This document shows positions 1 through 54,255 of a stretch of DNA of 64,000 nt, in pieces (positions within the stretch are counted from its first letter, which is position 1; each line of letters opens with the position of its first letter). Made by a program: the position numbers and the translations under genes. The DNA is from a virus (lineage: Duplodnaviria > Caudoviricetes). The DNA is taken from IMG/VR virus record IMGVR_UViG_3300021255_002485, positions 67,802-131,801 of that record, one strand, 5' to 3'. The notes beneath the pieces are model-generated. The model saw only the letters and a list, made by a program, of their open reading frames with translations. It was not told the origin of the DNA and did not search any database.

Positions 1-719
1 TCATCATAGGTCTTAAACGTCAGATCCCAGTTATCTTCTTCTGGAAAACTAATATTTTTAGCTTTCTGAAGTATACTACGTGCTTCCATATGTTCATTAT
101 TGAGAGCATGAGTATCAGTGCCACAAATTAAGGGTATATCATATTTTTGTGACACTTTATAAAGATTACGATTGTATTTAATCTGTTCTTCTACCATATG
201 ATGCTGAATTTCAAGAAAGCATCTATGCTTATTCTTAATAACAAAATCCAAGATCGCCTTTCGCATATCTTTGTCATTACCAAGCAAAACACCACCTAAA
301 CATGCCGTTGTCACGATAATATTATCAGAAGTGTGACAAAGCTCGTCTACGGTAATTCTCGGCACATAGTAATAATGACCATCCTCTCTATTAAAAGAAA
401 GCGAGGAAAGTCTATTTAACTCTAATACTCCATCATAATTTTTAGCAATAAGGACACAATGTCTATTATCTCGGATTTTCTCGTCCAAATTCTTTGTAAT
501 ATAAAACTCTTCAGCATGAATATATTTCATGCCAGCAGTTTCAATGTGCTCTTTTTTTTTCACCCATGAAAAAATTGAACCATGTTCAGAAAAAGCAAGT
601 GCGGTCATGCCGCACTCTTTGGCTTTTTCTATATATTGATCTGGCTTTGTAACTGAATCAATCGAAGTGACTCCATTACTTAAATCAGAATGTAAATGAT
701 ATACAGTATAGTTCGACAT
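1..719 (-). CDS. dnaE: DNA polymerase III alpha subunit (PHP domain), truncated at the window start
   Basis: Own translation from ATG at 719: MSNYTVYHLHSDLSNG...ALAFSEHG...HCVLIAKNYDG...FLEIQHH...GTDTH, the PHP metal-binding motifs of DnaE; not in the ORF track because it is open at the edge. Confidence 0.93.
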   Translation of the reverse strand, partial: MSNYTVYHLHSDLSNGVTSIDSVTKPDQYIEKAKECGMTALAFSEHGSIFSWVKKKEHIETAGMKYIHAEEFYITKNLDEKIRDNRHCVLIAKNYDGVLELNRLSSLSFNREDGHYYYVPRITVDELCHTSDNIIVTTACLGGVLLGNDKDMRKAILDFVIKNKHRCFLEIQHHMVEEQIKYNRNLYKVSQKYDIPLICGTDTHALNNEHMEARSILQKAKNISFPEEDNWDLTFKTYD

Positions 720-5760: not shown

Positions 5761-6000
5761 TTAATCGTCTTCGTTCATTAATTTGTCTCTCAACAACCTA
5801 AAAACCTCTCTCTGTATATCAAAATCTTCCTGCGTAATATCCCGATCCTTTAACCAACTCAGCTGTCTCTTAATATCTCGTTCCTGCCTATAAAGACTGA
5901 TAGCATTCTGTGTCACTCGAATAATTTGTGTAATCACCAATACTGTCGTTATAATTGTTAAATACATAGTAAACATGTCCTCCTGTTTTAATTGCGTCAA
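5761..6000 (-). CDS. small membrane protein
   Basis: N-terminal hydrophobic helix (YLTIITTVLVITQII). Confidence 0.65.
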   Translation of the reverse strand: MTQLKQEDMFTMYLTIITTVLVITQIIRVTQNAISLYRQERDIKRQLSWLKDRDITQEDFDIQREVFRLLRDKLMNEDD

Positions 6001-49861: not shown

Positions 49862-50119
49862 TTTCTTTTACCTCCTCTTGGATGAATTCATACATTTCTT
49901 GTTTTGTTGAAAATTTTCCCTCGTGCAATAGGGTAAAATCACCGGAGTGCATTGTTGTACTCCGCGTATGCCACATTGAGTGAGTGACATACTATTGTGG
50001 TGATGCGGTCACCACGGATGATGATCTCATACTGCGACTTTGCAGCGTTGTGGTACAGACCGACAGTTTCATTGGTGCGCTCATTGAGTGCGGAATAAAT
50101 ACGTGACATGATTAGCCTC

Positions 50120-50308
50120 CTACATCAGATAGGTACATACTACAGGCGTACCGAATTGAATAACACTCCTTAGCCCACTTGAAGTGTTAACACGCTCTAT
50201 CCGTGAGTCGTACTTGCTGGATAGTGCGCAGATTGCACTCTCAAAACCTTGCTCATACAAAGTGATGATGTCGTGAGGAAATCCCCACTGAGATGTAGAA
50301 ATAAACAT
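50120..50308 (-). CDS. small hypothetical protein
   Basis: Start MFISTSQ after AGGAGGG; the upstream extension in the ORF track lies in the RNA region. Confidence 0.55.
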   Translation of the reverse strand: MFISTSQWGFPHDIITLYEQGFESAICALSSKYDSRIERVNTSSGLRSVIQFGTPVVCTYLM

Positions 50309-50445
50309 AATTACCCTCCTGTTGTGATAGGTTGACGGTGACACCCACAATAATCCGAAGCAAGCAAAAGAGAACCGTAATCCTCTCCCACTCCATGTGT
50401 TCAGAAAAGTTGCGGACACCATAGGGATGACTACACCTATGGATA

Positions 50446-50487
50446 AAGCCGTGTGCGGAGTTGAACCGCTGTAACCGTTCACGGCTA
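50446..50487 (-). ncRNA. tRNA-like minihelix (acceptor stem plus T-arm)
   Basis: AGCCGTG/CACGGCT stem with GCGG-TTCAACT-CCGC. Confidence 0.6.
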
Positions 50488-51140
50488 TAAATTGTAGGAT
50501 TTACGACAGTTGGGACTTGCCACTCTCGACCTCACCACCCCATACGGGTTACAGAACTCACATCACCGTGACTCCTACGCTCAAGGGCTTACACCTTGAA
50601 TGGCTACTCAATGACCTACTACTTGCCACGGACTTATCCGACTACCATACAGCACCGACAATAAGCAAAACGTTCGGTATTTGATACTCTCGTCTGACAG
50701 TATCTCGTGGGTTTGTAGACCATTCTGACAACCGCCTGTGTCCATCGGCTTGTTGTATTTTTACCAAGTAAGATATTTTCGTGTACTATTCCGCTCTTAG
50801 AGCAACCACTTTCTTCTCTCCTATCCTCGGAACACACATATTACAGGTGATTCACTAAGCCCTTGTAATACGTGTTGCTGACCTCTACACTTGGTCGGGC
50901 GGCGACCCGCTTGTCTCCCTGCGATGTTATTTACTCTGTTCCTGTCAATCATGTGATGTACTCCAATCAGCAATCATGTGTTTTGTGGTTTGAACCGCCA
51001 CGACCCGTGAGCCTTAAACAAATCCGGTATTTCACAGTCGGTGTATCTGCTACTTTATCCGGCGACATGACGTATGTGATTTTTGTACGGTACATGACAT
51101 CTTGGCATTTCAATAACACCTTCGAATATCACGCCTTTAT
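50488..51140 (-). ncRNA. large structured ncRNA, ROOL-like (boundaries approximate)
   Basis: About 650 nt with no credible ORF, raised GC and many stems; 3' half resembles ROOL RNAs as I recall them (not aligned). Confidence 0.6.
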
Positions 51141-51145
51141 TGATA

Positions 51146-51265
51146 CCGTTTTGGATTACGGCGAACCGTAGGAAATAAAGCCATGAGAGAACCTCATGAC
51201 GTACAGATTTTGGATTATCTGAAACCTTAAAAAAGACGATAGTTTTAAGGGATTACTATCAACCC
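51146..51265 (-). repeat. three tandem H-type pseudoknot units GGUU-[S2]-AAUCC-AAA-[S2']
   Basis: S2 covaries: GATAGT/ACTATC, CAGAT/ATCTG, CCGT/ACGG. Confidence 0.65.
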
Positions 51266-51267
51266 AA

Positions 51268-51312
51268 ATCCGAAGGGCGGAGTTGCACCGCCCTTGACCA
51301 TCTCGGTCGGAT
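51268..51312 (-). ncRNA. tRNA-like minihelix (second)
   Basis: ATCCGA/TCGGAT stem with GGGCGG-TGCAACT-CCGCCC. Confidence 0.55.
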
Positions 51313-51317
51313 AAGAA

Positions 51318-51734
51318 TTACTTGTTTTTCCACTCATTCCAGAGCTTTTCACGCTCTGATGCAGTTACGGTATTATTTTTTGCGAATGCAGCTGCATCTT
51401 TGGTAGTCTTGAAAGTTATGACCTTTACCGTCTTGTCATACTGTCCACCAACAGACTCAAAACGACGCTTTAGGATCTCCCACACATCCTTCTTGACGTA
51501 TGCCGACAGAGTAACCTTTTTTCCGGTTGCACTCATGTTAACGGTGATATCCTTCGGAGTATACTCCTTCTCCTTCTTCGGTGATGACTTCTGATTACCG
51601 TACATGGATACCATACCATCCAGTATGCCCTTCAGCTTTTCTGCATCTGAGTCAGTAACCATATAGGTTAATCCACAGAATGTTACTTTGTTATCAGCCG
51701 ATACAGTAGATTTCGCGTTTTTGAAGTTAATCAT
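51318..51734 (-). CDS. basic hypothetical protein, first gene of the leftward early unit
   Basis: AGGAGG RBS, 138 aa. Confidence 0.75.
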   Translation of the reverse strand: MINFKNAKSTVSADNKVTFCGLTYMVTDSDAEKLKGILDGMVSMYGNQKSSPKKEKEYTPKDITVNMSATGKKVTLSAYVKKDVWEILKRRFESVGGQYDKTVKVITFKTTKDAAAFAKNNTVTASEREKLWNEWKNK

Positions 51735-53397: not shown

Positions 53398-54255
53398 ATG
53401 TCAATGAATGAGATTATTAATGTAACTGTTGATGAAAAAGCAAAAGATAAGACACCTATTGAAATTGCTTTAAAGGTAGATGATGAGAACATGGTATCTG
53501 CTAAAGACCTTTATGATTTCTTAGAGTATGATTCGACGCACTATGCAAGATGGTGTAATGATAATTTGATTAATAATCCGGTGCTTGAAGAAAACGTTGA
53601 TTTTTGGGCTTTTCGCCATAATGGCGAAAACTCACAAGGTGGTCGTCCAAGTGTAGATTATAAAATTTCATTGGATGTTGCTAAAGATATTGCTCTTGCG
53701 GCAAGAAGTGAAAAAGGTAAAGCTGCTCGTAGATATTTTCTCAAATGCGAGAAAGCATTGGTTATTACTGTACAACAATATAACGATCTGCTTGATAATT
53801 ATAATAATCTGAAAACAAAAATTGGCGAACTTGAAACTAAGTTTAATGACGATCTCCTTCTCCTCTCCGCTCGTATGGACGGTTATAACGAGGGTAAGGT
53901 ATTACTCGACAAAGAAAAAGCAGAATTCATCAAGGACGCAACTGATACTCTTAAGGAAATGATGCCGGATTTCGGATATGAGGGCGAAAAATACGGTAAA
54001 ATGCTTAGTGATGTTATAGCAAAAATGGAAGAAATAGATCGTGTGCCGTTTAGTTACTACACAGATGCATATCTTAAGCAGAAGAATTTAGGCAAAGTAA
54101 ATAACCGACTTGAGGTTATTGCAGAATATGATGAACTTCAGGATTTATTCTACTCTGCAATCAAATGTATATATAATAATAAACTCGTTCCGTTTGATTT
54201 AAGTGATTTTGGTAATGTTATAACAAGGGAGGAATTACTCAATGGTTACATCTAA
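53398..54255 (+). CDS. AntA/AntB-family antirepressor-like protein
   Basis: VSAKDLYDFL, ENVDF, GGRPSVDY, AK..A....KGK.AR.YF. Confidence 0.85.
   Translation: MSMNEIINVTVDEKAKDKTPIEIALKVDDENMVSAKDLYDFLEYDSTHYARWCNDNLINNPVLEENVDFWAFRHNGENSQGGRPSVDYKISLDVAKDIALAARSEKGKAARRYFLKCEKALVITVQQYNDLLDNYNNLKTKIGELETKFNDDLLLLSARMDGYNEGKVLLDKEKAEFIKDATDTLKEMMPDFGYEGEKYGKMLSDVIAKMEEIDRVPFSYYTDAYLKQKNLGKVNNRLEVIAEYDELQDLFYSAIKCIYNNKLVPFDLSDFGNVITREELLNGYI

Follow-up and report, generated by a model that had tools for sequence, protein, structure and literature searches.

Three short elements lie crowded against the 5′ end of a large non-coding RNA in a phage genome, and they raise a twofold question: do they fold as pseudoknots and, if they do, what would such modules accomplish at that position? 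The source sequence is a phage genome of 131.8 kb, and coordinates refer to the window, that is, the whole stretch of 64,000 nucleotides of this genome that was analysed; all elements of the leader and of the RNA are on the minus strand. An earlier note on this DNA quoted three minus-strand units, read each of them as an H-type pseudoknot and placed them directly 5′ of the RNA. The units are present in the sequence letter for letter, and they indeed adjoin the large RNA, with a tRNA-like hairpin on one side of them and the conserved RNA start on the other (Table 1). Below, S2 denotes the hairpin stem of a unit, S1 the helix by which the hairpin loop would pair back to the strand upstream and form the knot, and L1 and L3 the strands that cross S2 and S1, respectively.

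Results

A conserved phage RNA bracketed by tRNA-like elements

Reading along the minus strand, a conserved open reading frame (ORF) of 138 aa is followed by a T-arm-like hairpin, unit 1, a U-tract, unit 2, a hairpin with a GUUCU loop, a linker, unit 3 and the RNA. From position 51141 on, there are ~650 nt without a credible gene, up to a second tRNA-like minihelix. The large RNA is situated within an early operon of the minus strand, ~1 kb from its start, with tRNA mimics on both sides, and the neighbouring genes are small phage ORFs without assigned function. A DUF5688 protein (46882-47688, minus strand, E 1e-50) is encoded downstream of the small-gene array, as it is in L002, L373 and L375 (L-numbers denote related metagenomic phage loci), and a protein with an AntA/AntB antirepressor domain is encoded on the divergent arm (53398-54255, plus strand). 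A 15-mer known from the front of late RNA blocks has no copy near the locus of the three units.

Table 1. Position and composition of the leader, the large RNA and the flanking elements (window positions unless a related locus is named).
Feature	Position	Strand	Description
Conserved 138-aa ORF	51318..51734	-	synteny anchor of the locus, directly upstream; homologues P0002-P0038; gene-free gap after it
T-arm-like hairpin	51273..51295	-	5′ tRNA-like element of the lineage; 8-bp GC-rich stem, 7-nt loop UGCAACU
Unit 1	51238..51265	-	S1 5′ strand GGGUU 51265-51261; S2 5′ strand GAUAGU 51260-51255; loop AAUCCCUUAAA 51254-51244 (contains S1 3′ strand); S2 3′ strand ACUAUC 51243-51238
U-tract	51229..51234	-	6 U, directly 3′ of unit 1
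Unit 2	51204..51226	-	GGUU 51226-51223; L1 U 51222; S2 5′ strand CAGAU 51221-51217; loop AAUCCAAA 51216-51209; S2 3′ strand AUCUG 51208-51204
Spacer hairpin	51180..51200	-	GUUCU loop, then pyrimidine-rich single strand; two compensatory columns
Unit 3	51145..51167	-	GGUU 51167-51164; L1 C 51163; S2 5′ strand GCCGU 51162-51158; loop AAUCCAAA 51157-51150; S2 3′ strand ACGGU 51149-51145
Large non-coding RNA, conserved core	50488..51141	-	start AAUAAAGGCGUGAUA (51141-51127); near-invariant block 50915-50880
3′ tRNA-like minihelix	50446..50487	-	7-bp acceptor-like stem and T-arm, loop UUCAACU
tRNA-like elements in relatives	L002:6455-6485, L128:~560-620		also in L372, L373, L374, L377 and L378

The core of the RNA is conserved over ~0.7-1 kb, starts with AAAGGCRUGAUA and contains a near-invariant block, GACAAGCGGGUCGCCGCCCGACC...GUAGAGGUC. 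An nhmmer profile of this core retrieved 12 loci at E-values from 1e-19 to 6e-60, and with further relatives recovered by other searches, about 19 distinct loci were assembled. Wide pattern scans of viral, metagenome and genome collections with the 15-mer AATAAAGGCRTGATA and a GC-rich core pattern returned mostly chance matches, from which the true relatives were separated with the nhmmer profile; two later scans of the viral collection yielded no further relatives. All these loci reside on uncultured phage contigs, several of which exceed 100 kb, and when three versions of the region were compared by blastn with the cultured phages of INPHARED, no match was obtained, so that no cultured isolate or host is tied to the locus. 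In the layout common to the assembled loci, the ORF, usually followed by a terminator, leads to a tRNA-like element and 2-5 modules, after which come the core and another tRNA-like element. Homologues of the 138-aa ORF were found in metagenome assemblies, and in every fetched contig the homologue is followed by a gene-free gap of 1.1-1.6 kb.

None of this corresponds to a family in Rfam: there was no match in the window at the gathering score, in 49900-51500 at E≤10 or in nine relatives at E≤1, including, in the same scans of the window and the nine relatives, the large phage RNAs ROOL (RF03087) and GOLLD (RF01998). Exonuclease-resistant xrRNA families, whose ring-like fold encloses the 5′ end and stalls 5′-3′ exonucleases, likewise had no match in the window (gathering score) or in 49900-51500 (E≤10). 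ARAGORN reported no tRNA or tmRNA, and the tRNA-like elements are called by neither ARAGORN nor Rfam. Nevertheless, elements of this kind, with an acceptor-like stem, a T-arm and loops of the GGUUCGANUCC type or UGCAAAU, bracket the RNA in every relative. The T-arm-like hairpin of the window shows one compensatory pair, A-U to G-C, in the alignment of the four closest sequences of this lineage (hereafter, A3); fuller acceptor and T-arm mimics, with the loops GGUUCGA(C/A/G)UCC, occupy the 5′ position in the relatives, and the GGGUUCGACUCCC elements of L001, L002 and L004 are the 3′-end equivalents of the minihelix. The spacer hairpin also has counterparts, with (G/A)UUCU loops at the same position, in L002, L004 and L378.

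We consider it probable that the tRNA-like elements are processing signals for RNase P and RNase Z. No promoter consensus was found on the minus strand between the 138-aa ORF and the large RNA, and because, in addition, the RNA lies within an early operon with tRNA mimics on both sides, excision by these two enzymes is the most economical reading that we infer from the anatomy, based on the established recognition properties of RNase P and RNase Z. The large RNA, then, appears to be released by tRNA-type processing. In L004, a match resembling the twister-P1 ribozyme (5787-5840; 47.5 bits, E 1e-7, under the gathering score of 67.2) occurs among small early genes a few hundred nucleotides downstream of the large RNA.

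Three clustered units with a common plan

Each unit consists of GGUU, 0-2 nt, an S2 arm of 4-6 nt, AAUCC, an A-rich run and the second S2 arm. The units measure 22-29 nt, their starts are 39 and 59 nt apart, and their S2 sequences are unrelated. A descriptor scan of both strands of the 131.8-kb genome returned the three units within 120 nt and two loose matches far off, whereas 100 dinucleotide shuffles of the whole genome, which served as the chance control, yielded a mean of 0.47 matches and a maximum of 4. The bare core GGTT-N(1-8)-AATCC is not rare (7 found versus 4.0 expected) and therefore the signal lies in the clustering and in the paired S2. RNAfold predicts the hairpins of all three units. 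Taken in isolation, the S2 hairpins have energies of -4.5, -3.4 and -5.7 kcal/mol with z of about -1, and are no stabler than shuffled sequence. As judged from the sequences, then, the case for the units is comparative, not thermodynamic. The G.U pairs in S1 and S2, together with the direction of the flanking genes, assign the putative structure to the minus strand.

The hairpin stem

For S2, comparison within and between genomes leads to the same result. The earlier note had pointed to internal covariation, in that S2 differs among the three units and always pairs; this observation is correct, and covariation across genomes agrees with it. On A3, RNAalifold recovers the hairpins of all three units without a broken pair. 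Unit 1 shows one compensatory column, A-U to G-C in L005; in unit 2, the second pair of S2 is A-U, G-C or U-A among the four close sequences (A3 columns 82/99); and unit 3 shows two compensatory columns in L005, where CCGU/ACGG has become UGGU/ACCA. These last changes preserve S2 but not a competing hairpin, UACGG-UUCG-CCGUA. In distant clades, positional equivalents such as CGUCU/AGACG versus CAUCU/AGAUG and ACGGU/ACCGU versus AUGGU/ACCAU display the same behaviour, and S2 is fully paired in 28 of 28 curated units. The S2 hairpin is firmly supported and, as far as sequence comparison reaches, established.

The putative knot-forming helix

Within the window, S1 is invariant, with GGUU and AAUCC in each unit, so that the question of its existence rests on the relatives. 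The earlier note had paired GGUU with AAUC. The pseudoknot reading proposed there is largely supported, S2 by clear and S1 by moderate covariation, the latter being best in another register, with GG:CC and a central U.U; this register comprises G-C, G-C, the U.U and U-A. In variants, the U.U is replaced by U-A, U.G or G-C. Specifically, the loop U is changed to A (unit 2 of L001, unit 1 of L005, L128, L377) or to G (L242, L372, L374), both of which pair with U; as a result, unit 1 of L005 has a perfect S1 of 5 bp (GGGUU/AACCC), and the loop AAACC of unit 2 of L001 likewise gives a perfect S1 (GGUU/AACC). At one and the same position, L128 carries GGGU/ACCC and L377 GGUU/AACC, whereas in L372, L373 and L374 the outer pair is flipped, with CGUU/AUCG in place of GGUU/AUCC. 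The same topology with unrelated S1 sequences recurs in L162, in three units (AGGCU/AGCCU, AGGCU/AGC and CCGU/ACGG), and in L378 (CACC/GGUG), although the units of these two loci were picked by eye, which entails a selection bias.

Among the 28 curated units, the 5′ strand of S1 takes six forms, and S1 falls into 14 classes. When loops were swapped among the 14 classes, complementarity amounted to 46.0 as observed versus 37.4 +/- 2.3, and 9 of 20000 permutations reached the observed value. An objective descriptor found 42 pseudoknots in 19 leaders, compared with 13.7 +/- 3.0 in shuffles. Generic shuffle tests for pseudoknots and hairpins showed enrichment but were noisy and inflated by composition, and we give them little weight. 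Furthermore, the distance from the 5′ strand of S1 to the loop is exactly 6 nt in 22 of the 24 units of the GGUU/CGUU type; given that this distance is fixed despite variable spacing between units, the pairing appears to be within a unit rather than between units. The loop lengths, namely, an L1 of 0-2 nt (3 in L378) across an S2 of 4-6 bp and an L3 of 3-7 nt across an S1 of 4 bp, fit the classical rules for H-type pseudoknots. L2 measures 0-2 nt and is mostly absent; an L1 length of 0 presupposes that S2 opens its outermost pair.

One alternative is that the units are plain hairpins without a knot and that the complementarity between GGUU and AAUCC is fortuitous, given flanks rich in G and U and loops rich in A and C. 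Indeed, for some units, composition alone suffices for 4 bp to match in as many as ~40% of the flank/loop pairs after shuffling; S1 is thermodynamically marginal, with three or four canonical pairs and a G.U or U.U; and plain hairpins are what a sister clade uses at this position. The U-A pair of S1 is lost without compensation in unit 2 of L006 (AUUCC), unit B of L002 (GUUCC) and unit B of L004 (ACUCC). Only about five independent events inform S1, most units having the same S1, and, in an alternative offered by RNAalifold, S1 of units 1 and 3 would face competition from a long-range helix rich in G.U pairs (A3 columns 30-38/132-141). Fortuitous complementarity, however, leaves unexplained the matched double changes in S1 (GGGU/ACCC; CG..CG), the remote and unrelated yet complementary S1 pairs within the same topology, the outcome of the swap test and the fixed distance between GGUU and the loop, and loops of 8-11 nt on stems of 4-6 bp would be oddly large for simple, stable hairpins. 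We thus regard the interpretation without a knot as rather unlikely and hold that the units probably fold as pseudoknots.

Several other pairings were considered and rejected for want of conservation. Pairing of a GGAUU located 5′ of unit 1 with the loops is lost in L005, as is the UACGG-UUCG-CCGUA hairpin competing with unit 3; a CCUUAAAA/UUUUAAGG helix is lost in both L005 and L006; and pairing of GCUUUAUU with AAUAAAGGC at the start of the core is lost in L004. The idea of a loop receptor fared no better, there being in the RNA core neither a conserved GGAUU nor, in the case of the CUUUA clade described below, a conserved UAAAG that would track the loop type.

The U-tract makes unit 1 resemble a weak intrinsic terminator, and one could imagine that unit 1 with this tract, and likewise the GUUCU hairpin with the U-rich sequence behind it, are conditional terminators that are tuned by pseudoknot formation and set the read-through of the early operon into the large RNA. 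Each of the four closest sequences indeed has a run of U residues behind unit 1 (6 in the window, 7-9 in the other three), the spacer hairpin, which in this lineage has the U-rich tail, was flagged as terminator-like, and the lineage lacks the strong terminator that is found right after the ORF in other clades. Yet no unit of any other clade is followed by a U-tract, units 2 and 3 lack one in this lineage, too, and unit 1 itself combines an AU-rich stem of -4.5 kcal/mol with an 11-nt loop. Attenuation is, accordingly, a very improbable role for the modules.

A constant face on variable scaffolds

The modules of the leader turn over quickly among lineages, which may carry AAUCC knots, CUUUA hairpins or other S1 sequences, whereas, throughout the lineages, the copies within one genome carry a constant face on variable scaffolds. 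The sister clade (L239, L248, L379 and L380) has, at the same position, three plain hairpins that all end in the same top, ACC-CUUUA-GGU, but have unrelated stems (L239:7460-7545, L248:6839-6925, L379:2538-2620 and L380:2504-2590). In L371 (reverse complement), there is no pseudoknot but only a GGUU-AAA-AUCC mini-hairpin about 25 nt before the start of the core. Thus, the RNA does not require a pseudoknot. In L373, the two strands occur in reverse order (AAAUCC-AGA-GGUUU, 2622-2637), which, along with the stand-alone helix of L371, suggests that the short GGUU/AUCC helix with its central U.U is itself the conserved element.

These observations bring up the main rival to the 5′-end protection proposed below, namely, that the modules are repeated docking sites, of which the RNA would present two or three copies, and whose constant face binds a partner of phage or host origin, S2 being a scaffold that varies so as to avoid mispairing among the copies. 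This face might be the GG:CC/U.U helix with the A-rich strand or no more than the loop and its 5′ flank. Possible partners are the 138-aa protein and, on the host side, an RNA-binding regulator or a nuclease that the RNA would titrate. Such recognition would explain the within-genome constancy better than protection of the RNA end does, as the copies of one genome hardly differ in S1 and L3 but vary freely in S2; the CUUUA hairpins follow the same logic without a knot, and the helix recurs in the stand-alone and reversed forms just described. The 138-aa ORF is strictly syntenic with the large RNA, and an AlphaFold2 (AF2) model of its product (pLDDT 82) comprises a lysine-rich linker and a beta-alpha-beta C-terminal domain, whose ferredoxin/RRM-like topology is weak evidence in the same direction. 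However, no partner was found. The ORF has no family match in Pfam, PHROG or PADLOC; Foldseek returned no match for the AF2 model at E≤0.001; and VIA-align matched the C-terminal domain to generic alpha/beta sandwiches of the ferredoxin, RRM and ACT kind with Z≤4.6, which is not diagnostic, so that the protein was set aside as a candidate RNA binder: its model is good but its fold matches are uninformative. Moreover, L378 combines an ORF of the L239 type with a pseudoknot and no CUUUA hairpins, so that the kind of module does not follow from the clade of the ORF, L162 has a different protein upstream, and the core contains no conserved complementary receptor. On this evidence, docking is a serious contender that we nonetheless rate as unlikely.

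The earlier note had also considered that the units might be decoy antitoxins of type III toxin-antitoxin systems (pseudo-ToxI) or miniature aptamers of the preQ1 kind that soak up small molecules. What the units share with these RNAs is the general shape only, that of a small pseudoknot of the H-type that has an A-rich strand and occurs in a phage, whereas their sequence, length and spacing differ. Against a decoy antitoxin, there are no tandem near-identical repeats (Tandem Repeats Finder gave 0 rows in 50400-51400 at a minimum score of 30), the spacing is variable, and none of the seven neighbouring ORFs matches a ToxN-, AbiQ-, CptN- or TenpN-like protein in Pfam or any PADLOC defence family; absence of the toxin gene does not in itself exclude a decoy, which would need no toxin gene of its own. 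Against an aptamer, cmscan of 49900-51500 at E≤10 returned three unrelated weak matches and no riboswitch, RF00522 included, and the junction varies among the units: L1 may be U, C, G or A or be missing and, with L2 mostly missing as well, there is no conserved pocket. Both proposals are, in our estimate, highly improbable.

Discussion

The explanation that we favour, albeit tentatively as regards structure and function taken together, is that the three elements are genuine small H-type pseudoknot modules that protect and insulate the 5′ end of the RNA. Each module would consist of a variable hairpin (S2) of 4-6 bp with a loop of 8-11 nt, the 5′ half of which pairs back to the GGUU located 0-2 nt upstream to form S1, whereas the connecting strand, which ends in AA, could lie in the minor groove of S1. 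The modules would not be free-standing genes but, together with ordinary hairpins, would make up the fast-evolving 5′ leader of a non-coding RNA of ~0.8-1.1 kb. Under this scenario, host RNase P and RNase Z would cut at the tRNA-like elements and free the RNA, the compact modules starting a few nucleotides past the cut. RNase Z leaves a 5′-monophosphate on the downstream product, and such an end is the preferred entry point for decay of the RNase J1 type. The modules would then cap the new 5′ end against nucleases that depend on access to it, such as RNase J1 in Firmicutes. In addition, a chain of self-contained modules could prevent the leader from mispairing with the core or invading its fold. 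A block to RNase J or another exonuclease, which the earlier note had put forward as well, is plausible on anatomical grounds because, in all lineages, only 3-7 nt separate the 5′ tRNA-like element from the first structured module. A pure roadblock, however, would not need S1 and L3 to be constant within a genome, a feature that hints at sequence-specific recognition.

A more elaborate variant combines this recognition with the mode of release of the RNA. The 2-3 copies of the constant face, that is, the GG:CC/U.U helix and the A-rich strand, could act as a multivalent lure that captures or titrates a host factor, for example, a defence nuclease or an RNA-binding regulator. The copies, each on a different scaffold, would be tethered to an RNA that the host's own tRNA enzymes cut from the early transcript, and the fast turnover of the modules would be the trace of an arms race. 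We consider this chain of assumptions improbable as a whole.

An answer as to whether the leader protects the RNA end, the reading preferred here, or recruits a partner would provide a first experimental handle on the action of the large RNA in early infection. In either case, the units delimit on the 5′ side a conserved RNA of ~1 kb, so far without annotation, that occurs in large phages from gut metagenomes. If the fold is confirmed, the units, at 22-29 nt, would be among the smallest natural pseudoknots, and they would be unusual in that the constant part is the knot-forming helix, whereas variation is left to the hairpin.

Known systems resemble the leader in part. In the classical H-type pseudoknots, such as those of luteovirus frameshift sites and of the gene 32 leader of phages T2 and T4, the elements follow each other in the same order as proposed here (5′ strand of S1, L1, 5′ strand of S2, 3′ strand of S1, L3, 3′ strand of S2), with zero or one nucleotide between the stems, a short L1 across S2 and an A-rich L3 possibly placed in the minor groove of S1; like the gene 32 knot, the units are located in a phage 5′ leader. 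By contrast, the units have a much smaller S1, with four positions including a U.U or G.U, occur in 2-3 non-identical copies and precede a large non-coding RNA, rather than forming part of an mRNA leader or a frameshift site, and there is no link to a regulated gene. The upstream pseudoknot domain of tobamoviruses and tymoviruses also comprises about three small pseudoknots beside a tRNA mimic and is a modular accessory of a viral RNA. It is, however, found at the 3′ end of the genomes of plant RNA viruses, 5′ of the tRNA mimic, as a stacked rod, whereas the modules described here belong to a DNA phage, lie on the 3′ side of the mimic, have linkers and plain hairpins between them and show no sequence similarity to that domain.

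Among small regulatory RNAs, ToxI, CptI, TenpI and the pseudo-ToxI of phages are likewise small pseudoknotted units in several copies, of which phages can carry mimics. The type III antitoxins are head-to-tail, near-identical repeats of 34-45 nt that are cut by the adjacent toxin; the units are not repeats, differ in S2 and spacing and have no toxin-like gene next to them. The preQ1-I aptamer (RF00522) is another very small pseudoknot of the H-type, with the groove of its first stem occupied by an A-rich strand, but in this 34-nt RNA that stem is variable and the pocket loops are conserved, the reverse of the units with their constant first stem and smaller size, and there are no queuosine genes near the units.

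With respect to the RNA as a whole, ROOL and GOLLD are also large structured RNAs of phages and prophages that are associated with tRNA-type elements; neither mini-pseudoknots in a leader nor tRNA-like processing signals at the flanks are known to be part of these families. An array of knots with constant S1 and variable S2 at the head of a phage RNA bracketed by tRNA mimics had no match in Rfam and no description in a full-text literature search. The architecture of the large RNA recalls MALAT1 with mascRNA and the tRNA mimics of plant viruses. H-type pseudoknots as such are well known; what appears new is their proposed arrangement as an array of 22-29-nt knots, with a constant S1 and a variable S2, that would serve as the leader of a large RNA.
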